Below, piece after piece: positions 1,719-20,000 of a stretch of DNA of 20,000 bases. Made by a program: the position numbers and the translations under genes. Numbering within the stretch: position 1 is the first letter of the stretch; each line of letters starts with the position of its first letter. A model generated the notes under the pieces. It did not search any database and was not told the DNA's origin. It saw only the letters and a program-made list of their open reading frames with translations. The stretch is from assembly GCA_045837725.1 (NCBI GenBank), contig JBEWZL010000091.1, forward strand, positions 46,377 to 66,376, read 5' to 3'. The stretch is from Vermamoeba vermiformis (Eukaryota).

Positions 1719-4700
1719 TTACGAGAACAAGTCAATCAAGTCATCGGCAGTCAGCTTGGTGGAGATTTCGGACTTGCGCAGAGCTCCTTCAGCGAGCTTT
1801 CTCTTCTTTTCTTGCAGCGCGAGAATGCGGTCTTCGACAGAGTTTTGTATGGTGAATCGGATCACGTGCACAGGTTTGGTTTGGCCGACACGATGCACAC
1901 GGTCAATGGCTTGTTCTTCAGCTGCTGGATTCCACCAAGGATCCAACAGGAATACGTTGTTAGCTTCAATCAAGTTCAAACCAAGACCTCCTGCCTTCAG
2001 AGACATGAGCAGAATGGTGATGTCCTCTTTCTCTTTAAAGGCGTCAATTTGTTGTTTGCGCTTTTGAATATTCATCGAGCCGTCCAAGCGAGAGAATGTC
2101 CAACCATGCTCTTTGAGCGGGTATTCAATCAAGTCTAACATGCTCGTCCATTGGCTGAAAATAATGGACTTGCACTTGGGATCTTTTTCTTTAACTTTCT
2201 TTAGCTCTTCCAACAACGCTTTGACCTTTGTGCTCGATTTAATGGCTCGTCCAGGCATTACGTTGAAAGATCCGATATCAATGTCCAAGTTGTTTGATTT
2301 GACGACGTAAGGCTTCATCGAATCCTCCTTCTGCGGAACAGTTAATTTCACGAAGCAAGAGAGCGTACAATTACTTACCAAATCAGCATTGCACACAGGA
2401 CAAGCAAAACTAGCAGTGCCCTTTTCGATCTTAATTTGATTGGTGTTGTTTGCCGTTGCATCGGACTTTGGGTCGTCATCAGTCTTCTTCGTCTTGACGC
2501 ACGACTTGCAGAACACGTGCTTGCATGAACTGATGACGGGGTCTTCAAGTACGTCATTGCAAACTGGGCACACCGTCACTGCACTCTCTTTGGAGTCGTC
2601 TTTCTTGGTTTCAGCTTCTTTTTCTTGGGGTTTATCGTCCTTGCTCTTCTCATCTTTCTTCTCATCACTGTCGTTGTTGTTGCTTGACTTCTCGGGCGTC
2701 GTATCTTTCTTGCCTTTCATCTTGCTTCCTTTCTCGGTTGTCTTTTTGTTCTTGCTTGCGCGCGTTGTGACTTTAGTCTTCTTTTCCTCGACATTACCAA
2801 GGAGCACTTGTCCTTTGACTGCTAAATAGGGGTGATCGCAGGCTTGACGTAGCCTCAGCAACAGCACCAAGATGTGCGTGTAGTTTTGAATAATAGTGCC
2901 TGACTTGACATAGTCATCGAATTCGACTTTGGACTTGGCATACATGGCTTGATAAATATCGTCCTCCTGCAACAGCGAAGTTAGTGTCTTGTTTTGGAAG
3001 GTCGTGATTTATGTTACTAGTCGTACCTCTTTAGAGAAGGCATCGGCTCTAAGGATGACGTTTCGTTCAGGAAGTGTTAGGATTGGTTTGCCATCAATTT
3101 CCATGTCCTTAGTTCGGCAGATCAAAATTGGATGCAAAATCGATTGAAGCAAAGCAAATCCCTTTTGAGTCAATCTGTCGGCAATAGATGACTTCCAGAA
3201 CGAGTAGTCAGCGTAGGGACTGTACTGCAAGAACTTCAACAAGCTGTACAAGTCGTCCAAGCTGTTTTGGATGGGAGTGCCCGTCATAGCCCATCTTTTC
3301 TTGGCATCGAGAGCGCAACACGCACGTGCTTGACGCGTCGCTCTGTTTTTGATAGAGTGCGCTTCGTCTAAAACAACGCGGTACCATTTGACTTTCTGTG
3401 AAGGACCAAGCGGATCCGTTTCCACTAAGGCAATGAATTAGCAACTGATTAATAGTTAGCCTAAAATATACCTTTGGGGTACTCGCTCGCAATTGTAGCA
3501 TACGTGCTGATAACAACATCGTATTCTGCGAGTTCTTTTGCACTCTTTGAGCGTGTTTGTCCGTGGTGAATTCTCACTTTGCTGTGAGGGTTGACGTTAG
3601 CATGTTTGGACTTGATGTTTGAGGTACTTACAAAAGACCATCAGCGGACTTGGTGGTAATTTCTTTGTACCACTGACTGACGCAAGACAACGGGCAGATA
3701 ATGAGCGTAGCTTTGCGTTTGGGGTCTGGTTGTTTGGCTTTCGATTTTCCTTTGACACGCTCGGCTTCAGCAGCGGGAGTATTGTGGATGATGCACGAGA
3801 GCATTTCACTGGAAGAGTCGTTAGTTATCCTGAAGGACCAGACCATAAGAAATAACATACATAGTTTTGCCCAAACCCATTTGGTCCGCAACAATGCCAC
3901 CAGCAGGCTCCATGCCCTCTCGCTTCGTCATCCACGCAAGCGCTTGTTTCTGGTACTTGAACAGCGGAACTTTAAGATCTTTCGGCGTATCGAGTTCGTC
4001 TTTGAGTTCTTTTGGACTCTGCAAGATCTTATTGACGAGGGACTGCACTGGTTGGGAGGTGTATTGCGGTTGTGCATCAATGCGAAGAGGAGCTTCGGGT
4101 TTGTTGGAAATGCTCGGTACTGCGTGCACATTGTTAGATTGACTCCACTGAGAACGAAAACGACTTACGGTCGGGAGTGTGAGTCAGCAGATCAGTTGTA
4201 AGTCCAGACATCATCGTTGAAGACAAGATTGACGAGATGGAATCAATGCTCGGCAACTCTCCCGAGGCTGTCGAGTTCGGTGAATTACCAAACGAAGTTG
4301 TGGACATAAGTGGCTTGGACCCTAGATCGTGCCATCGTTAGCAAAAAAGAAAGTAATCCTTGGGCTAACGTACGTTTTGAATCTTGTGCTGCGATAAAAG
4401 AGGCCCAGTCTGTCTTGAACGGATTTTCGTTGCCAGTAGTTTCAGTAAACGCTGAAACAGAATTAAGTTAGTTTAACGAAGCTGCACAGGTTCGCATCAT
4501 ACGTTTCTTTACGGGTATACTATGACCACTGCCGATATTGAGTTCAATGTGCCTTGGCGGCGCTGGATCCAACTGAACGAGACCTTAGCGCCAAATGCCT
4601 TATAGAATTAGTACTTACGAATGGTGCAAACAATTCTTTCATCACGGGGTCGGTAGCCTTGCTCGGGTCAAATGTTGGCATGATACCAGAGAGCTGTGCA

Positions 4701-6288
4701 GCCCCGACCAGTGGAGGCTTTGGCTGTGAAGTAGGCAGAGGGTACGGCAACGTAACCACAACCTTTGGAGGTCGAGGAGGCTCGGGCTTGATAGGAACTG
4801 TAGGAGGCGTCGTGGCCTGTTGTTGAGAAGCAGTGTCTAGTGAAGAGATTGTCTGCGTGTTATTCAGAACTTGTTTGAGCATCTCATCGGTCTCCATCAT
4901 CGACTTGCGAATACGCTCGACAAAATCTTCGTCTTCAGCTTCAGTCGCATTCAGCTTCTCTGCAATCTTGCGCAACTCTTCTGCTGACACTTCTCGTTTA
5001 ATGACTCCGTCGACCTTCTGTTTCTTGGCGGCTGGTTCTTCGTCTTGAGAATCAATAATTTCTTCCACCTTCCGCTTTTGTCCAGTCAACGTTCCATTTT
5101 CAGCCATGTCGTTGTCAACGATAACCACCTCGTCATCGCTCGTGTGATTGAGAGTGCTCGATTGAGGGACTTGTGTTTGTTCATCGTTCACCAAGTCCAG
5201 CAACTCTTCCATGAGCTGACTCTCGTTTTGTTGGGAGAACTGTTCTTGACTCTGCTCCACGGAGAATTCATTGCCTTTCAACGCCTCGAGAGCCAACAGC
5301 AGCTTGCGTCGCAATTCAGGATCGTTTATTTGAAGTACTGACTCGAGGTCATCTTCAGATAAGCTTTCCAATATCTCGCCATCAATGCCTTCCTCTTCAA
5401 GGTTCTTTTTGTAATCTTTAGCATCAGGAAAGTTCATCTCGAACCAAGCAGTGACCTCATCGACACTCCAATCTGACAGTGGTTTCTTTGGCTGCAGGGA
5501 CTTGTTAGATAAACGTAAATCACCTCACTGACTCACTTTCTGCATTGATTCGTTCAAAATTTCAATTTCTGGTTCAACTTCTTCGTGGTCGACGACAACA
5601 CGGGGGGACGCTATGTCTAAAATAAAAATGAATAAACTCGGCTAACAACCGTAGGTAGTGTACCTTTCGGATTAATGAACGTGTACACCAGATCCGAAGC
5701 TGGATTGTGTACTGGGGCACCAACTTCATGATTTACCACGCCACCGAACACAATGATATCATTATGCCTAAAATACGATATCAGTATTTGATACAAAGCA
5801 GAAAGCAGTGACGTACTTCAATATAGCTTCTTTGACGCGAATTCCATTTACAGCTAGACCGTTCAAACTGTTGTTGTCGGTAAGTTTGTATTGAATATTA
5901 TCACCATCTTCGATGCGTTCGATAATAGCGTGGACTCGCGATATCAATTTTGGCATTTTCGGAGAATCAAGTACGCTGGCCGGATGTCAGTAATCTATTG
6001 ACGAATAGTGCAATACAGATGCTTACATATCGCTAGCTTGTGACAATCTACCAAGTTTGAGCGTTTTTGGTTGCAAATTTATAACCGCAGGCGTATTAGG
6101 GCTGGATCGAGGAATTAATATTAGAATATTTTATTTTATTTGTATTTAGCTAAAATAACCATTGTAAAATATTGCCAGAGTTTTATAATAATTTTAACGA
6201 TTATTCAGTATTTAATTTTGACTTACCCCGCGATCTGAGGGTCAACCAGCTGTAAAAAGGCAAAACTATTATCGTGTGGCGAGTTCAT
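1719..6288 (-). CDS. Rad5/Rad16-like SNF2 ATPase with C3HC4 RING and N-terminal FHA and SAM domains (multi-exon)
   Basis: Motif I GGIVADQMGLGKT, Ia TLIICPLS, II VVLDEAHSIKN, III MTGTPIQN, RING CPVC..CKHVFCKSC..CPVC, HELICc SLKAGGLGLNL/QAIDRVHRVGQ. FHA: LKLGR..ISRVHA..DNNSLNGLAVNG. SAM: WSVDEVTAWFEMNFPDAKDYKKNLEEEGIDGEILESLSEDDLESVLQI..RRKLLLAL. Putative ATG at 6288 (MNSPHDNSFAF). Confidence 0.92.
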
Positions 6289-6557
6289 ATTATTCCTACG
6301 TTCAAATATCTAATTAACTTGAATTTGAAGCGCAGTTGTGGTGCACCCTCGATCTGATTTCTTCGAAGAAAAATATTCGAATAAATAACTTGATTTGCAC
6401 CACAAAAGATTAGCCTTCTAGTTGTCTATAATTGGAAGTATGCTCTATTGTGTTTGTTTAAATTTGGTTCTTCACTGAATCGCGCGATTCAACCAGGGCT
6501 CGCAGCGGAGATCGAAACCCACGGCGATTTACACACTCATTTTTAAAAGATTCAGCT

Positions 6558-8425
6558 ATGAGCACCAAAGAAGCAGAAAATTTAGAGCTACTGCAGCACG
6601 ATCATCATGGCGATGATTGGAAGATGGATGTAGCCAAGCTCGGTCCTTTCAAAAAGACAGACGAAGATCTTAAATCAATTAAAGATAAAAAGAAGAAAAA
6701 ATTCTATAAGAAGCAAAACGAACTTATTGATGAGCTCGAGAAGATAGAATCTGGAGAGTTGTCGAATAAAAAAGAAGAAGAGCGTATTGGTAAGTTTTTA
6801 AACACGAAATATAATATTGACCATACTGCTGGTACCCAAATACGCACGAGGATTTTTTTTATAAAGTTTTGTGGACCAAATGGACAACTTCTGATCAATT
6901 TCCAAATCTAGCTCGTCGTGGCCAAGTTGCTGTCCGTTTGTCCTTCGCCTTGAACGTAGTCTTAATCGGAATAAAATTAGCCATCGTAATTCGATCAGGC
7001 TCAATCTCGGTTATCGCATCGGTAATCGACTCATGTTTGGACATTGTTTCTGGCTCAATTATTTTCGTAACTAGTTGCTTGATGCGCCGCAAGGTAAGTA
7101 TCGATGAAAATATCATAACACACTTCGTTTATATTGGTAAATCTTTGTTTAAATTTCTTTTACGGAGTTTGGTTTGTGCCCATCTAATTTCCTTTTGTGT
7201 TTATCGCAGAATAAATATAAATACCCGGCCGGAAAGACCCGTTTAGAGCCTCTCGGAATCGTAGTATTCGCAACATGTATGTTTACAGCATCTTTTCAAG
7301 TAGTGGTAAGTTGCAAAATACAAAAATACGGAAATTTGTTCTAATTACGTTCTGTGAACAGACTGAAGCAATCCGACGGCTCATAAACCAGGAACAGACT
7401 TTGGAGATTGACATATGGTCTATTGCTGGTCTTGCCGCTGTCGTACTTATCAAGCTATTTTTGCTTGTGTTTTGTATTACGTACGCTAAAGGAAGCGAAT
7501 CCGCAGCAGCTTTGGCCCAAGATCACCGAAATGACGTTATTTCGAACTCTTTCAGCATTGCAGCGGTATTACTCGCTTTCTACTATGTTTGGTGGTTGGA
7601 TCCTGCTGGTGGTATGGCAATTGCTCTTTACATCATGATTAATTGGTAAGTTCCTTAGCTATTCGGAGTTCATGTCATATTCTAACAATAGTATATTAGG
7701 GCCATTACTGGTTTACGTATGTTGCTGTCTCGGAGTTAGTAGATGTTCTTTCTAACGTATTTTTAGGCTTGGTCCGTATGTTAACTGGCAAGGCAGCAAA
7801 GCGTGAGTTTGTACAAAAGATCACGTTCTTGTGCTGGAATCATCACCCGCAAATCAAGGCCATTGATACCGTCCGTGCGTACCACTTGGCTCACGGTTAC
7901 TTGGTCGAAGTCGATATCATCCTTGACGAAGGCATGGCCTTGAAGTAAGTTTTTCCGCATCGATGCGCAGGAATGTGTAACTCAATGACTTCAGGGACGC
8001 ACACGACATTGGTGAGACTCTTCAGAACAAGCTCGAGAAATTCCCAGGTAAGCACGCACAATCAATGATGAAACGTGGTTTGCCTAACAGATTTATTTCG
8101 TATTTTAGAAGTCGAGCGCTGTTTCGTGCACTTAGATTACGAAGCGCGCCACGCTCCTGAACACGGCTCTATTTTCGAAGAGACCGAAAAGGAAAAGGCG
8201 GCAAGACTGAAGAAGGAAGAGAAGGCTAAAGCCAAGGCTGAAAAGAAGCAGTCCAATAGCCTTAAGAACAGCACCGAGGATTTGAAGAGCAGCGTTGAAT
8301 TGAAGACTAGCGGTAGCATTGAAATGAAAAAATCAACTTCATCTAGATCAATTTCAGAGCTCTCGGGATCCGAGGAGAAAGAGCGAATCGATGCTCACGC
8401 TGGAAAAAAATTGAACAAGGCCTAA
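6558..8425 (+). CDS. Cation diffusion facilitator, Mn-CDF (plant MTP8-11-like) metal tolerance protein (multi-exon)
   Basis: N-terminal KFYKKQNELID, SGSISVIASVIDSCLD (DxxxD), KYPAGKTRLEPLG, AQDHRNDV, WLDPAGG, IDTVRAYH..VEVDI, AHDIGETLQNKLE..EVERCFVHLDYE. Includes a 17-nt microexon at 7700-7716. Confidence 0.93.
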
Positions 8426-9172
8426 TGTAAGCCTATGGTTTGTAAATAAATAGTTTACGATCAGCGGAGTGCCAAATTTCAGTTTGTGATTTCCGTTTTT
8501 GTCTCATATTTACAGCGTTTTTGTTTGCGGCATTATTTGAAGCTCGTGTATACTAAAAGAAACAACAAAGGACAAGCCTTTTTGACGTGTCAAAAGCAGA
8601 TCTGTATTATTAACAGGCCGATCTTGTTCCGCACGTCTCGAAGCTTCCTTTTGTGCAGTGTATATTATTTTTATTATTTATATGTATTATTTATGGTATA
8701 GAATTAATTAGATATAACAAGGTATGTTCCCGCTTTATTTAATGACATACGAATAATAATAAATTACATCCGTCATAATAAATCAAACAAAATATCTACC
8801 ATTGGTCCAGTTAAATTCTAGAACCTACCTGGTCGTTGGTCTGGTTACAGCTCTAAAATTAAGCTGTCCTGTATTCGAAATCTAGAAACTTGCACGAAGG
8901 AAATTTGTTCTGAAGCATTACTTTTGTAGCTTAATGATATCTTATGTATTTAAATTTATTTAATGTCGCGATCTACTCAAATTTAGCCATCTAGATCATC
9001 TGATCGTTGCTTTCCCGAGAACACTTGATAAATCATTTAACATAAAATATTAAAATAAGAACCTTCTAAAAGAAAACATTGCTTTCCTTATTATTCCTGA
9101 CGGATGTCATTAAATAGATTTTTTGGAATTCAATAGAGAGGCACATAATTAACGCTATTTTAGTTTAGAATA

Positions 9173-12100
9173 ATGGCCAGCGAAAAGAATGTAAATAGTA
9201 CGGACGCTAAAGGCGGAGAGGATTTGCCCGTGGATGTTTCCAATCAAAGGCTCACAAAATTGCCGAATTGGGTCTACAACTCGCATGCCCTGTCCATGCT
9301 GAATGCGAAGAATAACAAGTTAGCTAGACTAGGCAAAAAAATATTCAAATTAACGCGACTGACGCACTTGAACTTGCGTAACAATAATTTGAAGAAGTTG
9401 ACGCGAGGAAATAGACTGGGTATCGAGAAGTTAACGTCACTACGGTATTTGGATCTGGGTCAAAATCAACTATCTAGATTACCAGTATCTATAGCGCAAT
9501 TGGCCCGATTAGATTCTCTCAGTATTGATCACAATCATTTAACACAGGTACGGCGCCGAGATCTCGCTGAGTAAATTACGATATTAATAACGGTATTTTT
9601 ATAGCTTCCTCGAGAGATGGCCACAGGGTTATCTAGACTACAGATACTTCATTTGGATTACAACAACATCGGCCCTACTTTGTTCAGTGCGACCAAAGCA
9701 CGTGAATCTTTTGACGGAGATGACAGTTCGGAAGAAGACGAAGAAGAGCCGATGCCAAATCAAACTATTATAACCGCAAATGGAGAGGCGTTTGATATTA
9801 GCACGAGCTGGAGTTCAACTCTGAAGCATCTAAGCGTTTCTTGGAACAGGCTAGTCGAATGCCCGGATGGCTTGGCACGTTTGGCGAGCTTGACTTACTT
9901 AGATCTCAGTCACAACCAATTGCGAGAGCTGCCTGACGACATTGGAAACTTGAGTCTCCTCCACACTCTAATCGCGAGCAGTAATCCGATCGAAACGCTT
10001 CCCTCGACCCTTCACAAGTTACACAATTCATTGCACACGCTGCACTTGGACTACAATAGGCTTCAGTTCATACCTCCTCAAGTTTATCAACTTACTAAGC
10101 TTGCCGAATTGAAACTGAACAACAACTTGATCGCTGAAATTGGTCACAACATTTCGCAACTGACGTCATTGAAGGTGCTGCATTTGAATGACAATAGAGT
10201 GCGCTACATCCCATTTGAACTCACAACGCTACCCGTGGTTCAAAGCGCAGTAGTCGACGTCTCAACAGGCATTCCGCTGACAGATATCAATCAACACGAT
10301 ATTCACAGCATTTTGTCGATGTCTGAGGAGACTCTGAGTCATAGCAACGAAGCAACTTTTGCCGTGCATCTCGAAGGCAATCCTCTGGAAGACCAAATCC
10401 CGCGCGAAGTTCTTAAGCTCGGCAATGCTGCTGTGATCTCATTCGTGCGATCAATCAATCAATCCAAAGCAAAGTGGCGCCGTGTCAAGCTGATGTTTGT
10501 TGGAGAGGAGAACGTAGGAAAGTCGACCTTGTTACGTATCTTGACCAGCAAGTTCTCGTCGGATTCTGCGGCCTCCAATTCAGCACAAGGAACAGGCTCC
10601 GAGCCTTCGATTTCCAATACTGTATCGGTGCTCAACTTACTAGGCTCGTCATCTGCTCCCAGCATACCCGTATCACTAAGTGCTGAGGTACCTACTCCAC
10701 GTGACTTGAATAAGAAAGCTACAGTGCGAGACCTTGGCAATTCAGCGGAGAAAAACAAAGCAACTGACGGAATCAAGATTTACGATTGGTTGCCTGAGAT
10801 GGACGAAGACATAACGAGCACGTTATCGCCCGAACAGATGGAAGACCTCAGCAAATATCCGTTGGTTTATTCTTGTTGGGACTTTGCTGGACAGGATGTG
10901 TATGTATTTTGATTATTGTTACAGCAATACGTTTACTAATAATACAAACAGGTACTACCCGACGCATCAATTTTTTTTGAGCGGCCGTTGCATCACATTG
11001 CTGATGTTCAACTTGACCGATGTTAAAGGATCTCGCATCGAGTACTGGTTGAAGGCGATTAAACAACGAGCTGGTGTTGGAGTGGGAGCTCCTGCTTGTC
11101 TATTAGTGGGTACTCACCGCGATGACAAAAGAGTTGCTGACGAGCGCATTTGGACCGACACTTTGGCCAAGCTGAAGCAGAAATATCAAAGCAAATTCCC
11201 GTTCATTAAGGGCTACTTCGCTATCAGTTGCAAGAGCTTCAAAGGCATTCGAGAGTTGAAGAACAAAGTCCTCGACTTGACGCTCAGCTCTCGTGTTATG
11301 TCACAGCAAGACGTGCCACTTGGTTGGGTCATGCTTGTCGATCACATCAAGCGAAAGAGACAACAAGAGCAAATAATTAACGTGGCACAATTCGCTCAGT
11401 TCGCACGATCATGTGCCGGTGTGGAAGTACCAGATATTCCGACGTTGGTACGATTCTACAACTCTGTTGGTATTCTGTCATTTTTCGATGACACTAGCGA
11501 CGACGCGCAATTTTTGAAGTTCATCAATATCAACAAACAGCCCAGCAAGAGCACCATGTTAAACGAGTTGGTCATTTTAAATCCTCAATGGATCGCCGAT
11601 TTGATGTCGACTATCATCACAATCAAGCACTCGTTTGCAAAGGACGGTGTGTTGATGGAGTCAGATCTGCCTCAGATATGGCGAGACTATCCCACGGCCA
11701 TGTACGATGCACTGTTGAACCTGCTGGAGAAGTTCGAAGTGGCTTACAGACTAAGAAATTCCAATTTGATTGTCTCACCTGCTATTACTTTCTTGGCGAA
11801 GCTACCAATGCGCTACGAACGAATCAAACGCAAGAACAGACCTGGACGTAGCAACACTGTGTTTGCACTCAATTATCAAGACCCAGAAGTACCGGATTCA
11901 ACAGAAGATATGACCGGTGGACGCGAGAGAAGTGGCACTGTCATCGTTCATGATTCATTGCCGCCATTTGATATGAGTGCCCTGGAGAGCCCGCCAATCA
12001 ATGACATTACTAACTCGGTCACGAAATCTCCTCGGGATAGTCCACTTCGAGAGGCAAGAGATGACGCGGGGTTGAAGAAAGCAACGAAAGGCAGCGCTGC

Positions 12101-15100
12101 AGTTACACGCACGGATCGAAGCAAGAGTTTTGACTTGGGCAAGAAGCACGCGATCACCAGCATTAACTTGACCAACCTGCCAAAGCCTTTCGAGAAGTCC
12201 GAGACGTCACCAAAGGAAAAGAAAGAAAAAGAGAAGGAAAAAGATAAGCGCAAGAGTCCACGAAGAAAACGACGAGACAGCGACTTGGCTCCGCGACGAA
12301 CCCCGTTGGCGAAGAGTGATAATGCCGTTCAATCCCTGAGCGCGGAAAAACTGATTTCACCTCCGCTCGTGCAAACCGTGGGATTACCCACTGGCGGATC
12401 ATTGGACTCCGTTATAGAACAGCCTTTACCTGCACAGGTTGTAAATTTGAAGACATCGGCCGAGGCTCTTGACGACAGTCTTGAAAGCAGCGTTGATAGC
12501 GATATGAGTTCCGATGAAGATCCGGTCAGTCCAATGAAAAAGAAAAAAGACCGCTCAAAGCGTGAAAAGAAGAAAGAAAAGTCAAAGAAGGCAAAGTTGA
12601 TCAGAAATTCAAGCGGAAAGATTAAGATTAGCTCGACTGTGAACTACTCTCCAGAACCCAGAGACGAAACTAAGGCTATTGCTATCAAGGGTGTGTTGAA
12701 GAGAACCCCGAGCAGATCCAACAACGAAACGCCCGTTGGATCGCCGGCCATGAACACGAGCAGCAGCACGGTGTCTTTTGATGTACGCTCGTCACCCGAG
12801 TCAAGCAGCGCGAGTAACAGTGAGCGAGCTAGTTCCCCAAGAGCGGAGCGCGGACGTGACAGTGCGGGCATTAAGATTGTTGTGCCTTGCCTGTTGCCCA
12901 AAGAGCCCAACTTGAAGATGTTTGACGCGTTGTGGCCTGAACCATTCGCTGAATTCACTTCCGACCCTGACTCGATCAACTACGATGAAATGTCTGGCAA
13001 CCTGATCGTATCTATCGATGGAAATGATCAAGGCAATTCTCAAGACTTCTTGCATCCCATGGGGCGTGTGTTATTGTTCGACTTCATGCCGTTAGGATTT
13101 ATGGTAAGTTGAATGGTAGTGGTAATTTCCTGGCTAACACCGTGCTTTCAGTCGCGACTTATTGTTAGGACTTTGCAGCTACGACAGATCAAACCACTTT
13201 ATTTCTGGCGCCATGGTATTATGTTGGATTTAATCAACGAAGACACTGCTTTTACATCGCGCGGTTTGATCGTGTTTGATGAACTTAATTACAACCTTCA
13301 CATTCGCATTCGCACCAAAAAGAACAAAGAAGGCGTGGACGACAAAGGGTACATCAAACCAGCAGCGCAGTTGATGATGTTGCTCATGGACAACATCAAC
13401 ATTTTGTTGTCTCACTCGTGGTTCAAATTCTCGAAACAGCCAGAGATCAGAATTCCGTGTTCGCACTGCTTGGAGCAGAAGTTTGATAAGCTCTGGACTG
13501 ACCCGAATGCCGTGCCCTCAGTCATGAACATTTGTTGGTTCACGCTGGAAGAGTGCCTGATGCGAATTTACACGGGTTCCGATCACGTTGTTTGCTCCGT
13601 GACTCGACAATCGGAACGCGTCGTGAACCTCTTCTCTAACAATACTCGCATGCGCAAATTGTACAACAACTACGCACTCAACTCAGGACTTAGGCTCGTA
13701 CACGACGCGAGAAGAGTAAGACAATCCGTTCCCTTTAGTAACGTACACTTACCTTTATATTTTACAGCGTTTTGAACCGACTGTAAAGGCGAACGTACCT
13801 CTGTCTGACATTTGCCCTGATTTAACGTTCTCGTTTTTGTCGGCAAACTCTGAAAACAACATATCAAGCTTGTTGGTCAACTTCGATGACTTTGTTCTCG
13901 AACGAAAGCTCGCAGTTGGTGGTTTTGCGGAAATTTTTGTTGGCAGACAAAAGCCCAAGGAGTCCGAATACTTCAACGACGACAAAGTATTTGCAATCAA
14001 AGTATTGTTGAACCAAATGAAACAAGTCACTCTGCCACCAAGTCCTCGAAGTGCCCAGCCGACTCCCGAAAAGCCCGCGACAGACACTAACGCTCCTTCA
14101 ACAGTGCAACCAGTTACACCAGAGGTCGAAACACCTGCCGTGCAAAACCCAGAACCGAGCGGCACTGTTTCACCTCCGCCTGAGGAAGTCGTTGTCACTA
14201 ATCAAGAGGTCTCGCAGCAACAGCTATTGCAGCTTCAGAACTTAGAGCGTGCCAAACAGTCCTTTGCACCACAAGAGGTTACTGGAACTGAAGCTGATGA
14301 GCTCATGGATCGAGAGGCCTTTACACTGTTAGGCGAGACTTTCCGTGAATTGCAGCACGAAGTGTTTGTCATGTGTCAACTTCGTCATCCAAACATCGTT
14401 ACGCTGCACGCATTATCCATCAACCCTGTGGCACTGTTCATGGAGTTCTATCCGTTAGGCTCGCTGGACAAGTACTTGAGAGCTGCCATCGAAGGTCGCT
14501 CTGCTTCATCATCCCCACGTGGCATCGAACAACCAAAGGCGCTGAGCTGGAAGTACCGCGTGAAGGTAGCATTAGATATAGCTCAAGGAATGAACTACTT
14601 GCACGGAGAAGACATCATTCATCGTGATTTGCGATCACCAAACGTGTTGATAACCGACTTAAGCGACGAGGCAGAAGTAGTTGCCAAGGGTATGTATCTA
14701 GGATCTCTTTTTGGTTTGAGTGTACTAACGGTTGCAGTCACGGACTTCGGAATGGCTCAATATTTAGCTGGATCTCTTTATGGGGGTGATTTTAACGGTA
14801 CGTTTCCTGTCTGTGTGCCATGAGCTAATAATTTACGTAGAATGTTGGACTGCACCCGAAGTTCAAGAGGGACAAGAATACAACAACAAGTGCGACGTGT
14901 ACAGTTTTGGAATCATAATGTGGGAGTTGTTGCAGATTGGTTATCCATTCATGGAGTTCAACGATAAATATGGCTCTGTGCCACGATCGGAGTTTGCACG
15001 TGCTGTCACCAATGGGCTTAGACCTTCAATTCCAAATAGCGTGCCGGATGAGTATGCCAGCGTTATAACGTAAGTATTATTTAATGCCACAATTTGTTGT

Positions 15101-15221
15101 ATCAACTGTTTTGATTAGGTTATGTTGGCAATCAAGCCCAGATCTACGTCCTAGTTTTAGTGAGGTTGCGGAATTGCTTTTGCCCTTGTTGAAAATCTGT
15201 GAGAAATGGCTGCCATTGTAA
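9173..15221 (+). CDS. Roco protein: LRR - Roc GTPase - COR - TKL kinase (multi-exon)
   Basis: Many LxxLxLxxNxL repeats; Roc VKLMFVGEENVGKST, ATDGI, WDFAGQ, YYPTHQFFLS, VGTHRD; COR VILNPQWIADLM, FMPLGFMSRLIVR; kinase AVGGFAEI, FAIK, HRDLRSPN, DFG, WTAPE, DVYSFGII. Last exon ends CWQSSPDLRPSF..WLPL, TAA at 15219-15221. Confidence 0.95.
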
Positions 15222-15228
15222 TGTAAAA

Positions 15229-15576
15229 TTAAAGTTTGTTTGATAAAGCCTTTTGTTGCTGCCTAATAATATAATATAATATTTCGTCGTCTTCGTCGGA
15301 CTTTTTTCGTTTTTTGTTTTCTTTAAGTTTTTCCATTTTTTTGTTATTTTCTCTTTCCAACTCGTCGTCATCCAGATCTGTAAATAACCACAAATTTAGA
15401 ATTTATTGTGAAAAAATTTGCAACTATTTTTCCTTACGTTTATTTCTTTTTTATCGCTTTCTGCTTGATTCGCGTTTTCATTTTCGTTTCCTTCGTCTTT
15501 ATTATAAGAAGATGGCTCGGCATAGTCTTCACCATTATTTACATCGTTGTTTTCATCTACCGCCGAGCACTTGATC
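15229..15576 (-). pseudogene. 3' fragment of an acidic/Lys-rich gene convergent with Roco, apparently 5'-truncated and frameshifted
   Basis: Coding-like AVDENNDVNNGEDYAEPSSYNKDEGNENE.., intron GTAAGG..TTACAG at 15437-15378, then LDDDELERENNKKMEKLKENKKRKKSDEDDE..KL*. The natural-looking frames differ by 1 nt across the intron, and no clear 5' exon or ATG was found. Confidence 0.4.
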
Positions 15577-15947
15577 TGCAACCGGATTTACGTTGACCTC
15601 GTCGATAGAGCGTTATTATTCGTTTCAAACACCTCTTCGGGGTTATTAAACTTCGTTATCAGCCAAATGAAAAAGAACAACAAATTCTTGATCGGTGGCA
15701 AGACTTTGTTGCTCTTTTACGCCTATCGTGTTTGAACACCAAAACTGTACGACCTACTAGTCGCTACTTGATTTTTCTTTCTAGTAACCAATGATAGAAA
15801 ACAAAGACGATGAGCAGTAAGTTAATGACTTCCGTTCGATGTCTGCTAATAAAATTAGCTTCAAAGAAAAGAAAAATTGATAACGCTACCGAGGAAAGGT
15901 CTGGAAAGAAAGCCAGGAAAGGTACACTCCCTTCTTCGGAGATTTAA
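15574..15947 (+). pseudogene. Degenerate fragment, possibly the C-terminus of a DDE transposase
   Basis: One frame reads DLQPDLR*PRR*SVIIRFKHLFGVIKLRYQPNEKEQQILDRWQDFVALL, weakly like SPELNPIELIFAFVKHIL..QQIVLAF of the neighbouring transposase. It is followed by an intron (15817-15858) and a basic tail. In-frame stops are present. Confidence 0.3.
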
Positions 15948-15966
15948 AATATTTTTTTGAAAGAAA

Positions 15967-16012
15967 TATTATTGTTGTCCGGATTCAAATCCCGCCAAAA
16001 ATAATTTATAAA
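15967..16012 (+). repeat. 46-bp segment, copy 1 (direct repeat of 16777-16823)
   Basis: tattattgttgtccggattcaaatcccgccaaaaataatttataaa vs tattattgttaaccgggctcaaatccccccggaaaattgtttataaa. Confidence 0.8.
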
Positions 16013-16159
16013 TAGTTCCCACCCCGTAAATATTATGAATTTTATAAATTATTTTAAGTAAAATTCAAAATTTGAATAATGTATTACACGGGACGTTCGC
16101 AACCCGGGTAGAGCGTGCCTGCGTGCGAATACACAAATATACAATATTTTAAAGAGACT

Positions 16160-16316
16160 TATTTTATTACTTTATTACTACGGTTACACGATTCAAACAC
16201 ACGCAGAACTCGTTTGGCTTGACTACTCTTAGCAGCACGGAGCAAGGCAGTGACGGAAGTGTTTGGACTTACCTTCGCGGTGTAGGCGGCTTCCGTGGCA
16301 CTCAGGACTTTGACAA
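16160..16316 (-). ncRNA. Candidate short spliced non-coding transcript (left arm)
   Basis: TTGTCAAAGTCC.., donor GTAAGT starting 16272, GCTAA, CAAG acceptor at 16218 (55-nt intron), two AATAAA (16163-16176). No ATG ORF is conserved with the other arm. Transcription is inferred only. Confidence 0.3.
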
Positions 16317-16469
16317 CGCGAAAAAAACAAAAAAGTTTCGTGACACATCTTAGCTCACCTTCCAAATGCGGTCAAAATGACAAGATATCTCGGAAATTCT
16401 TGTCGGAAAACTGGAATGACCAATCATTTGGAAGGATTGAGCTTTGTTTACGTCACGCAATTTTTTCAT

Positions 16470-16625
16470 TTGTCAAAGTCCAAGTGCCACGGAACCACGA
16501 ACGCACGCCGTCGGAGGTAAGTTTAAAACTTGTTGCTGCATTGCTGCCTTGGTAAAGCGCTAAGAGTGTTCAAGCCATTTGTCGGATCTGTATGTGTTTG
16601 TACCATGCAACCCGTAATAAAATAC
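16470..16625 (+). ncRNA. Candidate short spliced non-coding transcript (right arm)
   Basis: TTGTCAAAGTCC.., donor GTAAGT 16517-16522, GCTAA 16559-16563, CAAG ending 16574 (58-nt intron), AATAAA 16616-16621. Transcription is inferred only. Confidence 0.3.
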
Positions 16626-16776
16626 TGTGGTTTAGCATATATTGTGTAATTTATGTCTATTCGCTTGCACGTACGCTCGGTGCCGGCCGCAACGCACGTT
16701 ATTATTATTGAAATTATGAATTTTTAAAATAATTAAAATTCTAAACAAAATTTAAACTATTTACAGGGTTCGAACT

Positions 16777-16823
16777 TATTATTGTTAACCGGGCTCAAAT
16801 CCCCCCGGAAAATTGTTTATAAA
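16777..16823 (+). repeat. 47-bp segment, copy 2 (direct repeat of 15967-16012)
   Basis: See copy 1. A partial inverted third copy (tttataaacaattttccgggg) ends the window at 19980-20000. Confidence 0.8.
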
Positions 16824-17152
16824 ACTCTTAAAATTAAAATTAAGTTTCAATTCTATTAAAATATTGAATTATGAAACAACGATAAACAAATTAATTATCA
16901 GAACGAACAATTTAAAATGATTTAACAATTAATATTAATAAATTACGGCAGTAACGGATGCACGCAGATCGACGGATGTGTTCGTTAAATTATTTTGTCG
17001 TGACTGATTTGAGACAACACCGGAACTAACCTTTATTTTAAACATAAATATATGTATACAACAACATGAATACCAAAACTACAAAAAACAAAGAAAGTCA
17101 CGAGCGCGAGATTGGCGAGGAGAGCGAGCAAGCAGTGGGAGCATGGAGCATT
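16803..17152 (+). repeat. Left long inverted repeat (visible part)
   Basis: Reverse complement of 19631-20000. Segment 16941-17084 matches 19703-19846 with one mismatch (17044) by eye; the outer AT-rich part is more diverged and has indels. Confidence 0.95.
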
Positions 17153-17173
17153 GGATTGTCGTTGCGTTGTATT

Positions 17174-18337
17174 TTATACACGCTGCTTGAGAGGATTTAA
17201 GCAGTGAAGGTAACATTTGAAAACTAACGTACGAGTAACCATTTGGAATGCTAAGACGATTTGCTGTTGCAGGGTTAGATCGCGATTGTAATAGTTTCGA
17301 AGGATATGCTTAACGAACGCAAATATAAGTTCGATGGGATTTAGCTCGGGTGAGTACTTGGGCAATAACTTCAGCTGAATTTTTAGCTTATCTAAGTACT
17401 GTACTAACTCGGCGAATCCTTCAGCACTAGTATGAATGCGAGAATTATCTACAATCAGGTAGTCACCTTCGCGTAGAACATCGCGCGTTACACACCAACG
17501 AACAAAAGAATTGAAGTCCGAGTGACAGTTCGTTTTGGGTCGAATTACACCAACGATTGGCTCCGTCTCTGGGTCGATACTAAACAATTAATACGTTGAT
17601 GACAAAGCTTTACATCATACCATGTAAGTATAATAGCTGATAGAGTTGGTTCATTTAACGGACCACGCTCATTCATTATTACAGGTTGGCCAACTCTGCT
17701 TCGGCCACGCAGTCTGCGAACATCTGTGAACAATTAGGTATGTAAATTATTTAATTGCTGGTCAAATTTACCTTTCTTTTTAAATGAGACTTCATCGATA
17801 AATTTGATTCGGCAAAGTGGCAAAAATATCACCGCTTTGAGATACTCCTCATAATAAGCAATATTATCAGGAGTATACTTGTGCACCTGTTTGTACGATG
17901 CAACTTTATAACTCCTATTTAACGATTAGTAATCTGTGTTCTAACACTTAACGAACATACCAGCGCCACGAGCGGAGCACATCATAAACCCAGTCGGGCT
18001 TAATATCAGTCTCAAGTAGTCGATTGATATGCTGACATATCTCCTTGGCATGAAGGCTGCAATCGGACTTCAACAAGGCCCAAATCAGTGCTTCGATTAG
18101 CTGTTTCTCTTCGTCAGAGAACTTAGAATAGCGATGCCCGCCCCACTTCATTGGGTGGAAACTGTCATCAACAACCTTTCTCTTCCAGTACTTGATTTGG
18201 TCTCTAGAGAGATTGGTCACCCGACAAACGAGCTTCGCCGGGTAAGTCAGTGCAGCAGCCCCTCCGCAAGCTCTTCGAAGATAAAACTCCCGCAGTTTAC
18301 GAAGTCGTTGATGACTTGCAGACTTGTTGTTATTCAT
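17174..18337 (-). CDS. IS630/Tc1/mariner-superfamily transposase (DDE_3-like), DD38E, 4 exons, ~342 aa, intact
   Basis: Exons 18337-17961, 17914-17772, 17723-17621 and 17579-17174 sum to 1029 nt in frame. HTH-like N-terminus (AKLVCRVTNLSRDQIKYWKRK; VYDVLRSWRWSYK), KFIDEVSF, LIVDNSRIH, LPKYSPELNPIELIFAFVK; 38 residues between the second D and the E. Confidence 0.93.
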
Positions 18338-18488
18338 TCTGTTGAAAGTAAGCAATTAGATTTGACACGTGGCGACTTTAAATAGAGTTTCCTGCTTTCA
18401 TTCAAATTTCAGTAAGATCTATCGGAGATTTCTACAGCGAGGAGTATCTCTTAAATGCTTACGTGTCATCGATAATTGCTAATGCAAC
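18338..18488. promoter_or_regulatory. 151-bp bidirectional promoter with dyad symmetry
   Basis: Both genes are preceded by ACGTGTCA-N4-TAATTGCT-..-CAACA-(GA)-TG: minus strand acgtgtcaaatctaattgcttactttcaacagaATG, plus strand acgtgtcatcgataattgctaatgcaacATG. Palindromic AGATCT lies near the centre (18415-18420). Confidence 0.75.
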
Positions 18489-19631
18489 ATGTTAAGCGCA
18501 ACAACACTTGCCTTGCAAGCGTCACAACAATACAAGCACATGAAGGTCAGAGCTCCAACTCCACGACGTTCAGACTTCAGTTCACAGCATGACTATGATC
18601 AAGCCATGCTAAGTTACTACCAAAAGAAGAACCAAGTTCACGCCTACAATCTTCGTCAAGACCAAAAGAGACTCGAGTTCATCAGCAATGGCTTGGCACA
18701 GGGAGAAGCCTTAGTCAACAAAGTGAAGCTCAAGCGTACTGCTAGCCAAATGAGTGATGATGTGGACCAATTGAACGATGTCCAGCTCGAGCGTAAATCA
18801 AAACGTGGCCGTCCTTCAAAAGTGAATTCAATCGATGTACCAAAGGCAGGCACTCCTGCAGGTAAGTTAGTTAGTGCATATATTAGTTAATAATTGAAGA
18901 ATTGAAATTAGGTATTCAAAAGGCTGCGCAGTTTTTCACTACTAATTGCCGAACTGCTAACCCACGATTCAATTCTGAGGCAGAAGCAGAGCAGGCAGCC
19001 ACGGTAAATAACATAAATATTGTTGAAATGCAATTAACCATCGAATAGAAGCTATTTAATAATTTGAACAAAACGAACGCTGCAATAATTCACATAACTG
19101 ACGATGACGGAGAGCTAGACTTACGTGGTCAACTTCCAGGTAAGCAAAATCAAATCCAAGCATTTCTAATTAAAATTCAGACCTTGACCTTGCCAACGAA
19201 GTCGAATTGCCTGCACAACAGGTGTCAGTAGCTCCGTCAAAAGTGTTCGTTAAGAATGAATTCAGTGCTCGACACAAAGTCAGCTACGACTTTTGGCTCA
19301 AAGTATTACCTAGCGAACTGCACTGCTATGCTGATCAACTTGCAACAAGTGGTATTCATGATAAGCATCTAATGGGACTCGACAGCACGATTATTTGGCA
19401 ATTGACGAACGATTTCTCTCTCTGTTGCGAAGTCAAAATTGCTGTGGATAACTATAAGTACGTAGTGTTATTTATAATTATTTGTACTTACGACGACGCA
19501 CTAGGCAATCGTTGAGCTTAAACCAGTTCAACACTAATAATACTAACGTCCGTCCGGTACCACCCGTACCGCCAGCACCAGGTGATGAAAAATCACTTCC
19601 AAGTACTCCAGTACTACCAAACTATCCATAA
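18489..19631 (+). CDS. Transposon accessory protein, ~319 aa, 5 exons: AT-hook-like motif, SAM-like domain, Pro-rich tail
   Basis: Exons 18489-18861, 18912-19003, 19049-19139, 19181-19457 and 19505-19631 sum to 960 nt in frame. KSKRGRPSK (AT-hook core GRP); FWLKVLPSELHCYADQLATSGIHDKHLMGLDSTIIWQLTNDFSLCCEVKIAVDNYK fits the SAM hydrophobic pattern; ends RPVPPVPPAP..PVLPNYP*. Confidence 0.8.
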
Positions 19632-20000
19632 ATGCTCATGTTCTCTCCGCTTGCTCGCTCTCCTCGCCGATCGCTCGCTCGTGACTTTCTTCGTTTTTTT
19701 TGTTGTAGTTTTGGTATTCATGTTGTTGTATACATATATTTACGTTTAAAATAAAGGTTAGTTCCGGTGTTGTCTCAAATCAGTCACGACAAAATAATTT
19801 AACGAACACATCCGTCGATCTGCGTGCATCCGTTACTGCCGTAATTCAGGCTTGATTTATTTAATTTTAATTAATTATAATTATAATTATTTACTGTTAA
19901 AATGTTTAATTAATTTGTTTATCGTTGTTTCTAATTCAACTTTTTAATGAAATTGAAACTTACTTTTAATTTTACGAGTTTTATAAACAATTTTCCGGGG
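19631..20000 (-). repeat. Right long inverted repeat (runs off the window)
   Basis: Reverse complement of 16803-17152; starts at the stop codon of the accessory gene and contains AATAAA at 19750-19755. Confidence 0.95.

Follow-up and report, generated by a model that had tools for sequence, protein, structure and literature searches.

The DNA analysed here, referred to as the window, is a stretch of 20,000 nt from Vermamoeba vermiformis (assembly GCA_045837725.1, contig JBEWZL010000091.1, positions 46,377–66,376 of the forward strand), numbered from its first letter. The segment of interest (15967–20000) contains two intact genes with introns, which point away from each other on either side of a 151-bp centre and are enclosed by inverted repeats. 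The original prediction had described two unrelated ORFs joined head to head, and their ATGs are found at 18337 on the minus strand and 18489 on the plus strand; the symmetry centre, which it had placed near 18417, corresponds to a midpoint between the ATGs at 18413 and to a midpoint of the inverted repeats at about 18402. Introns in both genes were placed by GT–AG boundaries and continuity of the reading frame. All seven predicted introns are 41–50 nt long and the frames stay open to give products of 342 and 319 aa, a pattern from which both transcripts would be expected to be spliced.

The leftward gene (17174–18337, minus strand) has four exons (18337–17961, 17914–17772, 17723–17621 and 17579–17174) separated by introns of 46, 48 and 41 nt, and it encodes a transposase of 342 aa. 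Its last exon matches the Pfam family DDE_3 (PF13358; E-value 2.7e-12, 47.2 bits against a cutoff of 28.6), and the catalytic triad is found in the spliced model within the motifs FIDEVSF, LIVDNSRIH and SPELNPIE, with 38 residues between the second aspartate and the glutamate (D44 to E83 in the numbering of the last exon). The DD38E family Intruder is reportedly restricted to animals. Four relatives were found at E-values of 0.001 or below among 507 candidates scored, and all four carry PF13358. These DDE_3 transposases (P0001–P0004) are the closest proteins, at 28–36 % identity; they have SPELNPIELIF and a C-terminal KCYLHC in common with the Vermamoeba protein, and residues D44, N45, H49 and S76–F86 of its last exon are invariant among them. 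The D-to-E spacing was counted in two of them and is 38 residues in P0001 and 44 in P0002. For exon 1, where the superfamily has its N-terminal helix-turn-helix DNA-binding region, the only Pfam matches are sub-threshold ones, to MerR_1 (0.0025), HTH_29 (0.0093), HTH_33 (0.026) and HTH_28 (0.064).

Gene 2 (18489–19631, plus strand) encodes 319 aa in five exons (18489–18861, 18912–19003, 19049–19139, 19181–19457 and 19505–19631), with introns of 50, 45, 41 and 47 nt. Exon 1 contains an AT-hook, KSKRGRPSKV, in which the core RGRP is flanked by K/R residues. The protein belongs to no Pfam family and has no kinase or zinc-finger Pfam match, and a single homologue was found among 1.84 billion representative proteins (P0005, 174 aa; E-value 5.9e-5, 32 % identity over 71 residues). 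The label of SAM domain given to this protein in the original prediction fares differently by sequence and by predicted structure. Neither exon 4 nor P0005 has a Pfam match at an E-value of 1 or below, SAM families included, and a profile search of the PDB returned nothing relevant. The AlphaFold2 model of exon 4, built from a two-sequence alignment, has five helices and a mean pLDDT of 63.7, with values of 70–81 over most of residues 30–91 and a dip to 58 in the block 61–70. When this model was compared by VIA-align, the best nine matches were all SAM domains (Z 5.5–6.8, rmsd 2.2–2.7 Å, 57–61 residues), at Z-scores below 8 that may reflect a common helical arrangement. Foldseek gave nothing at an E-value of 0.001 or below, most of its top matches being SAM domains, and the ESM Atlas gave SAM clusters at 0.78–0.79 only. 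A SAM-like five-helix fold for exon 4 is a candidate with moderate support from the predicted fold and none from Pfam. A canonical host SAM-domain gene is also present in the window, at 4544–5524. Gene 2 has no sequence relation to it (hhalign to the host SAM domain, E-value 0.29). In third-position G+C content, gene 2 (0.416) and the transposase gene (0.443) both fall below all seven host ORFs tested (0.465–0.57).

The 151 bp between the two genes (18338–18488) probably form a divergent promoter region, and a promoter motif common to both genes had been predicted. A TTTAAA-like box and the 8-mers ACGTGTCA and TAATTGCT are mirrored before each ATG, the 8-mers occurring in the same order upstream of both. 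The reverse complement of 18338–18415 aligns to 18416–18488 with a score of 27, as against 15.5±2.9 for shuffled sequences, of which 4 in 1000 reach 27.

The common inverted repeat predicted downstream of both genes was recovered as arms in which 16803–17152 pairs with 19631–20000 (86 % over 372 columns, BLAST E-value 7e-102). In a local alignment 335 of 363 ungapped columns are identical, and the homology extends to 17172 on the left and 19611 on the right. Within the arms, identity is 98 % over a sub-block of 152 nt, 91 % over one of 69 nt, 87 % over one of 63 nt and 100 % over one of 25 nt. Each repeat is about 390 bp long and consists of a terminal motif of about 44 nt, an AT-rich tract of 120–130 nt (84–85 % AT) and an inner segment of 230 nt. 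The left repeat (16779–17172, plus strand) begins with the terminal-motif unit R2 (16779–16822), followed by the AT-rich tract (16823–16940, 85 % AT); its inner segment runs to within 2 nt of the transposase stop codon (17174–17176). The right repeat (19611–20000, minus strand) includes the second AT-rich tract (19847–19977, 84 % AT), which like the first had been anticipated, and overlaps the last seven codons of gene 2, stop included; it is visible up to position 20000, where the window ends, so that the outermost 24 nt or so of the R2 mirror, and possibly a mirrored R1, lie beyond. Because both genes stop where a repeat begins on its inner side, their 3′ UTRs and polyadenylation signals are probably provided by the repeats, which may also act as terminators.

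To the left of R2 stands a further terminal-motif unit, R1 (15969–16010, plus strand), which was identified by pattern match, starts with TTATTGTTGTCCGGATTCAAATCCC and is 80 % identical to 16777–16811. The repeated segment of 46–47 bp in the original prediction is accounted for by these two units of about 41–44 nt, the sequence TTATTGTTNNCCGGNNTCAAATCCC having two plus-strand copies, at 15969 and 16779, against a chance expectation of none. Each unit is preceded by the dinucleotide TA (15967–15968 and 16777–16778); the first of these, read from the sequence directly outside R1, is a candidate copy of a target-site duplication, and if the whole element is flanked by such a duplication its right-hand copy would lie beyond the window. 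In contigs of a public DNA run (X1) the left end has two limits: one contig matches the window from 15969 onward only and another from 16777 onward only, each with a different flank before it. A third contig, described below, keeps R1 beside R2. R1 may form the extremity of the left end or be the solo end of a sister element, and both the contig that starts at 16777 with an unlike flank and the one that keeps the two units together bear on whether it belongs to the element.

Between R1 and R2 lies X (16011–16779), a palindromic, non-coding, MITE- or foldback-like insertion of 769 bp. The second dyad, predicted near 16392, is indeed present as a self-complementary span from 16008 to 16782 centred at about 16395 (E-value 1e-63). 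The arms of X make up nearly the whole of it and are about 70–78 % alike (278 of 355 ungapped columns identical); it has imperfect terminal inverted repeats of its own, subterminal tracts of 81–85 % AT, and TA on both sides (16009–16010 and 16780–16781). The longest stop-to-stop frame wholly within X is 66 aa, and a frame of 89 aa (16286–16555) starts in X and passes its right end. One X1 contig fuses 16008 directly to 16780, skipping 771 nt with two letters (TA) common to both sides of the joint; this is a single contig of depth 188.7 whose shorter side is 23 letters, taken at a likeness threshold of 85. At least two variants of X occur among the X1 contigs. X is thus short and non-coding, with inverted-repeat ends, TA on both sides and a contig that lacks it. 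For the second dyad, the likeliest reading is that a MITE-like palindrome inserted as an element in its own right, with TA on either side. The left palindrome and the two-gene element have about 50 terminal nt in common, with no homology of their arms beyond. The termini of X are unlike the terminal motif of the two-gene element, and a different transposase may therefore move it. The alternative offered originally, in which an element lies directly against the diverged end of a sister element, comes closer to these findings than its main proposal does: the common terminal nucleotides fit it, and the palindrome is set apart by one contig.

Depths in run X1, which are k-mer depths of contigs and do not equal copy number, are 400 for the flank, about 267 for the contigs of X that resemble the window, and the 188.7 of the joint lacking X. 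The summed contig depth of the bin 16613–16813, which covers the terminal motifs, is 10358 as against 400 for the flank, in a bin that includes the AT-rich tract and may draw in unrelated contigs at 85 % likeness. Interior contigs have 1.2–1.7 times the depth of the flank, so that this very element may or may not be mobile, and one contig (18021–19732) extends without a change in depth from exon 1 of the transposase gene across gene 2. These contig depths point to termini that are repeated and a gene-bearing interior of low copy number. A metagenome run (X4) contains diverged variants of the 3′ end of gene 2. In an RNA run from a diverged strain (267 of 427 reads less than 90 % alike) the depth on the element is essentially zero.

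The element is a multi-gene member of the IS630/Tc1/mariner superfamily, of a kind known from ciliates, and the original prediction of such an element with long inverted repeats holds on the DDE_3 match, the D, D and E residues and the two intact gene models. The region from 16779 (or 15969) to beyond 20000 is probably one autonomous cut-and-paste DNA transposon in which gene 2 is an accessory gene and X a separate insert. Its host is an intron-rich protist, and the LRR-Roc-COR-kinase gene next to the element would suit one that is amoebozoan-like. On the transposon reading, gene 2 is probably the element's own: it sits between the repeats with its stop at a repeat edge, it has the mirrored promoter motifs and the low third-position G+C content, it is joined to the transposase gene in a contig of single depth, and variants of it occur in X4. 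Both genes would be transcribed outward from the mirrored centre, and the transposase presumably recognises the terminal motif, cuts the element out and integrates it anew at TA. X, being non-autonomous, would have inserted at a TA between the tandem units R1 and R2. The product of gene 2 may be an element-encoded accessory or architectural protein, which could bind the AT-rich tracts of the repeats and help to pair or bend the ends, or could instead regulate the element. Host HMGB1, a DNA-bending protein on which Sleeping Beauty depends and which assists its synapsis, provides a precedent for an architectural cofactor and a functional parallel for gene 2 (PMC7827188).

That gene 2 is instead a passenger, either a host gene that was captured or trapped or else a decaying chimera, and plays no part in the life cycle of a Tc1/IS630-type transposon, seems to us unlikely. 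The protein has no family in common with known transposon accessory proteins, the context of its sole homologue is unknown, and both AT-hooks and SAM-type domains are commonplace in the chromatin and signalling proteins of hosts, a SAM domain being present in the host SAM gene of this very window; the reported rarity of IS630/Tc1 elements with cargo (PMC11544213) has also been set on this side. However, gene 2 is intact across five exons, resembles the transposase gene in its promoter motifs, in stopping at the repeat edge and in a third-position G+C content lower than that of seven out of seven host ORFs, is unrelated in sequence to the host SAM gene, and has diverged variants of its 3′ end in X4. 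If it were mere cargo, the locus would amount to a new but unexceptional transposon family in which a MITE is nested.

Two further readings concern the extent and the make-up of the element. The repeats could be about 1.2 kb long (15969–17172, with a mirror beyond 20000) and the palindrome integral to each; host-like sequence does stop at 15968, R1 has the same terminal motif as R2, and the window ends short of where a mirrored palindrome would appear. Yet the X1 contig that joins 16008 to 16780 lacks the 771 nt, another begins at 16777 beside an unlike flank, and X has its own imperfect terminal repeats with TA on both sides, which makes such a composite very improbable. Still harder to credit is the main proposal of the original prediction, a family of homologous exchangeable cassettes in which copies carry different genes in one frame of promoter, 3′ UTR and repeat. 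The mirrored promoter motifs and the identical repeats downstream of both genes agree with it, and since the terminal-motif bins have a much higher summed depth than the interior, many other units may share these ends. The inverted repeats, however, suffice to explain the identical flanks of the two genes, the promoter similarity extends to no more than two 8-mers and has a score that some shuffles reach, the arms of the neighbouring palindrome, which contains short frames only, are homologous to the repeats in just the outermost nucleotides, and the deep bin may owe its depth to unrelated contigs attracted by its AT-rich tract. The shared frame thus reduces to the repeats of about 390 bp and a short mirrored promoter motif, and a cassette system is without support.

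In the textbook picture, eukaryotic transposons of the Tc1/mariner/IS630 type have a single gene. To our knowledge, relatives with several genes come almost exclusively from the germlines of ciliates, where the additional genes are likewise of unknown role; the locus described here holds an intact two-gene element in a protist of another kind. Its transposase is divergent, at no more than 36 % identity to any protein found, the family of gene 2 is almost empty, with one remote homologue, and the AT-hook and SAM-like make-up of gene 2 suggests a testable role at the AT-rich repeats. Confirmation would provide a simple system for studying how long-repeat transposons assemble their ends, and the superfamily would gain a lineage. 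Going further, and with considerable doubt, one might picture a transposon lineage of free-living protists with its own architectural cofactor, whose AT-hook would sit on the AT-rich tracts and whose SAM-like domain would self-associate, bending and bridging the repeats for the transposase; the scaffold of terminal motif, AT-rich tract and inner segment would then be common to non-autonomous palindromic relatives such as X, which the gene 2 protein could also serve. Such a cofactor would do from within the element what HMGB1 of the host does for Sleeping Beauty.

Among known systems, the Tc1-like/IS630 elements of the Sleeping Beauty/Tc3 type have the same DDE_3-type domain, with D, D and the E in SPxLNPIE, and likewise have inverted repeats of hundreds of bp with TA beside the ends. 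The Vermamoeba element differs from them in having two genes and not one, in its introns, in a promoter that appears to be central and divergent where theirs is in the left repeat, and in inverted repeats within which no inner direct repeat of the terminal motif was found. Its SPELNPIE aligns to the SPDLNPIE of Sleeping Beauty, with an overall similarity that is marginal (E-value 0.038), and the DD34E spacing of the Tc1 family proper is absent from its transposase, which has 38 residues and not 34. X resembles Stowaway-like and other Tc1/mariner MITEs and foldback elements in being small and non-coding, with inverted repeats, TA on both sides and an insert-free configuration in DNA reads, and differs from them in arms that are nearly the whole element and of limited likeness. 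The ciliate TBE and, reportedly, Tec elements also combine a transposase of this superfamily with extra genes of unknown role between the repeats, one gene being on the opposite strand. For Oxytricha TBE, PMC4724952 describes inverted repeats that bear telomere repeats and, between them, three ORFs: the transposase (42 kD), a reversed ORF (22 kD) and a zinc-finger/kinase ORF (57 kD). Compared with the TBE ORFs by description only, the present element has two genes and not three, and an accessory protein that is AT-hook/SAM-like and not zinc-finger/kinase; telomeric C4A4 repeats are absent from its arms as far as these fall within the window. In contrast to the ciliate elements, the host genes here have the standard code and short introns.

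The layout given in the original prediction proved accurate. Comparison of the segment 15500-20000 with the whole window recovers the inverted repeat, the second palindrome and the direct repeat as its three non-trivial relations. These are an inverted repeat of 16803-17152 against 19631-20000 (86 % over 372 columns; E-value, 7e-102), a self-complementary stretch at 16008-16782 centred near 16395 (E-value, 1e-63) and a direct repeat of 15942-16012 against 16750-16823 (73 %). In a repeat search the inverted repeat breaks up into four blocks, of 152 nt (98 %), 69 nt (91 %), 63 nt (87 %) and 25 nt (100 %); when the arms are aligned locally with gaps, 335 of 363 ungapped columns are identical and the homology reaches 17172 and 19611. 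Each arm is tripartite: the terminal motif is followed by a tract rich in AT (16823-16940, 85 % AT, in the left arm; 19847-19977, 84 % AT, in the right), and this by some 230 nt of ordinary composition that form the inner segment. At 68 % identity or above, the terminal motif does not recur as a direct repeat further inside the repeats. The right arm runs up to the end of the window, and about 24 nt mirroring 16779-16802 lie outside it.

The minus-strand gene between the repeats is predicted to contain four exons (18337-17961, 17914-17772, 17723-17621 and 17579-17174) separated by three GT-AG introns of 46, 48 and 41 nt, and their in-frame join has 342 codons. The last exon matches the DDE_3 family of Pfam (PF13358; E-value, 2.7e-12), and the first has helix-turn-helix matches that are all sub-threshold. 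The catalytic residues are located in FIDEVSF, LIVDNSRIH and SPELNPIE, the last of which aligns with SPDLNPIE of the Sleeping Beauty transposase, and the spacing between the second D and the E is 38 residues. In a search of a collection of 5.8 billion proteins that covered its longer members (236-2000 aa), four of the 507 candidates scored had E-values of 0.001 or below; each of these is a DDE_3 transposase encoded on a short metagenome contig, is 28-36 % identical to the query and has in common with it a C-terminal KCYLHC. The DDE_3 match, the catalytic motifs and this level of identity to the closest relatives place the transposase, as judged from its sequence, in the IS630/Tc1 part of the superfamily, as a divergent member. 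A search for loci related to P0001, one of the four relatives, returned a single contig of 1114 bp without context, and the transposase exon has no relatives in viral_contigs. An extra 3′ intron (17232-17183) was considered and rejected, because the unspliced C-terminus retains the KCYLHC shared with the relatives.

Gene 2 lies on the plus strand, with five predicted exons (18489-18861, 18912-19003, 19049-19139, 19181-19457 and 19505-19631; 319 codons) and introns of 50, 45, 41 and 47 nt. It had been described as an AT-hook/SAM gene, and the AT-hook is borne out by a canonical core, KRGRPSK, in exon 1; the SAM assignment has no Pfam counterpart and persists as a predicted SAM-like fold. Searches of the exons against Pfam gave no match at an E-value of 1 or below except one irrelevant row (0.11). 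When 1.84 billion representative proteins were scanned exhaustively by HMMER with exon 4, the one relative to emerge was P0005, a protein of 174 aa with 32 % identity over 71 residues (E-value, 5.9e-5); it is seen on one contig of 3212 bp, matches no relevant Pfam family and has no relatives in viral_contigs. Word-based searches of longer proteins with exon 4 and with alignment A1 (306-2000 aa for the latter) returned nothing, the sole row obtained with A1 in a PDB profile search was irrelevant (E-value, 1.1), and the ESM Atlas yielded leads only below 0.9.

A single-sequence AlphaFold2 model was of no use (pLDDT, 37.7); with a two-sequence alignment five helices are predicted over residues 29-90, with pLDDT mostly 70-81 and 58 in the block 61-70. 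Foldseek found no significant match to this domain model, SAM domains making up most of the top rows, and the best nine rows from VIA-align were all SAM domains, aligned over their entire length (57-61 residues) at 2.2-2.7 Å. Since their Z values of 5.5-6.8 can stem from common helical arrangements, we call the modelled exon 4 domain only SAM-like, short of membership of the SAM family. A complex prediction for two copies of the domain scored 0.02 and is counted neither for nor against self-association.

The two ATG codons are separated by a spacer of 151 bp. When each half of the spacer is read toward its gene, the two align with a score of 27, against 15.5 ± 2.9 for shuffled sequences (4 of 1000 shuffles reach 27), and both contain a TTTAAA-like box followed by ACGTGTCA and then TAATTGCT, in the same order and at near-equal spacing. 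We read the spacer as a small, mirrored and putatively bidirectional promoter. The inverted repeats together with this putative promoter explain the impression of two homologous cassettes in the original prediction; the halves of the element are otherwise without similarity, and the idea of exchangeable cassettes is without support.

We think it probable that gene 2 is an integral accessory gene of the element rather than cargo. In favour of this, it is placed between the repeats and has the mirrored promoter in common with the transposase gene. It terminates at the inner edge of the right repeat, its stop codon being about 20 nt or less from the mirrored position of the transposase stop. The contigs of X1, a DNA run containing 92 % of the words of the stretch, were compared with the window, and a single one of them connects gene 2 with the 5′ exon of the transposase gene. 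The GC3 values of gene 2 (0.416) and the transposase gene (0.443) are both lower than those of all seven host ORFs tested (0.465-0.57), and no relation was detected between the gene 2 domain and the canonical host SAM gene of the same window. That gene 2 is instead cargo is about half as probable; this reading would suit an orphan whose homologue, P0005, comes without context and whose functional link to transposition is putative.

Binding of the element ends, cutting and reinsertion at TA are the established chemistry of this superfamily. Here the transposase would bind the terminal motif units, cut at the ends and reinsert the element at TA, a chemistry to which its domain and catalytic residues point. 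Long repeats with AT tracts would need bending or bridging, a step for which Sleeping Beauty recruits host HMGB1 (PMC7827188), and the gene 2 protein, with its AT-hook and SAM-like domain, might bend or bridge the ends of the two-gene element, or repress that step. Multi-gene relatives of Tc1/mariner are documented in ciliates, where the TBEs are reported to carry three ORFs, one on the opposite strand, between inverted repeats bearing telomere repeats (PMC4724952), and cargo-bearing IS630/Tc1 members are described in another report as newly found (PMC11544213). The ciliate elements are like the two-gene element in principle but unlike it in genes, repeat type and host biology, and searches of the main text of open-access papers turned up no AT-hook or SAM-type accessory gene in the Tc1/IS630 superfamily.

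The terminal motif, TTATTGTTNNCCGGNNTCAAATCCC, occurs at two sites in the window, 15969 (R1) and 16779 (R2), both on the plus strand and each directly preceded by TA, where none is expected by chance; its pattern was found at no locus in metagenome_contigs or viral_contigs. One X1 contig matches the window only from 15969 and another only from 16777, with unrelated sequence before each match, and these positions are therefore the ends of repeated units. In one X1 contig 16008 is connected straight to 16780, skipping 771 nt, with two letters (TA) that fit both sides; this is the picture expected of a 769-bp insert, the palindrome X (16011-16779), between a duplicated TA, although the joint is in a single contig whose shorter side, of 23 letters, was placed at 85 % likeness. 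With a depth of 188.7 the X-less contig is below both the unique flank (400) and the window-like contigs of X (about 267), which fits a polymorphic or heterozygous insertion of X, the alternative being another locus. X1 also contains variants of X with small indels and a 75-nt deletion.

The stop-to-stop frames of X are short: none that lies wholly within it is longer than 66 aa, and a frame of 89 aa (16286..16555) extends past the right end. X is equipped with imperfect ends of its own and with AT tracts in subterminal position; its similarity to the two-gene element is confined to the terminal motif, perhaps with the first part of the AT tract (score 64, against a shuffle maximum of 46). Homology of the palindrome arms to the repeats beyond the terminal 50-115 nt or so was rejected, with scores of 30-40 against shuffle maxima of 36-45. 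We conclude that X is a separate MITE/foldback-like element at a TA between R1 and R2. The second dyad of the original prediction is present, and is most likely a separate insertion, missing from one X1 contig, rather than a continuation of the left module. R1 may belong to the two-gene element, as its outermost part, or be the solo end of a sister element.

Over 16204-16588 the sole X1 contig covering the palindrome core differs from the window at eight sites and one indel, unlike the flanks and the two genes, where X1 and the window are identical; either there are several copies of X, or the palindrome is different or erroneous in the assembly of the window. R1 (15969-16012) is itself nearly palindromic (hairpin of −5.8 kcal/mol; 15 of 18 positions pair by eye), which is why one alignment extends the large palindrome to 15981 and 16802. 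The terminal motif has a T-loop-like look, an idea that was dropped when tRNA and Rfam scans of the window returned nothing. Just before the left end of the transposon there is a short plus-strand ORF (15810-15947) with a possible 42-nt intron and a possible GT donor near 15921; a host gene here may be interrupted by the whole insertion, or may carry it in an intron.

Contig depth in X1 is 397.5-400 in the host flank, 468-518 over the 3′ two-thirds of the transposase gene and 675 for the contig that runs from transposase exon 1 through the centre and gene 2, and the summed depth of bins with terminal motifs and AT tracts (1336, 10358 and 1262) is much above that of the interior. Contig depths are not copy numbers, but this pattern suggests a two-gene element with a low-copy interior and repeated ends. 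Identical (100 %) pieces of it occur at low depth in X4, an aquifer metagenome in which the host flank is also present, and in X5, whose runs are labelled as another organism; the host seems to be a minor component of both. Contigs of X4 are identical to the window until 17847, 19596 or 19637 and then pass into diverged yet recognisably related sequence, which hints at further family members with a 3′ end resembling that of gene 2.

The introns of the host, a eukaryote, are about 45 nt long. The neighbouring genes encode a SNF2-family helicase into which a RING finger is inserted, a RAD5/HLTF-like architecture by Pfam (1719-4201, minus strand), a canonical SAM protein (4544-5524, minus strand; SAM_2, E-value, 3.6e-11), a cation-efflux (CDF) transporter (about 6460-7650, plus strand) and a large, multi-exon ROCO-type protein (9164-14823, plus strand) with LRR, Roc GTPase (a weak match), COR-A, COR-B and protein kinase domains. 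The ROCO-type gene suggests that the host may be amoebozoan-like. An RNA run with the same species label comes from a strain that has diverged, gives no coverage of the element and so is uninformative on the expression and splicing of the element. Its reads at 14300-15650 are mostly less than 90 % identical to the window, so that the species label spans clearly diverged strains or species, and the differences in the kinase exon tend to recur every 3 nt. A T-rich low-complexity stretch at 15283-15350 draws numerous RNA reads whose loose ends are long poly-T runs, and the apparent expression peak there is probably an artefact.
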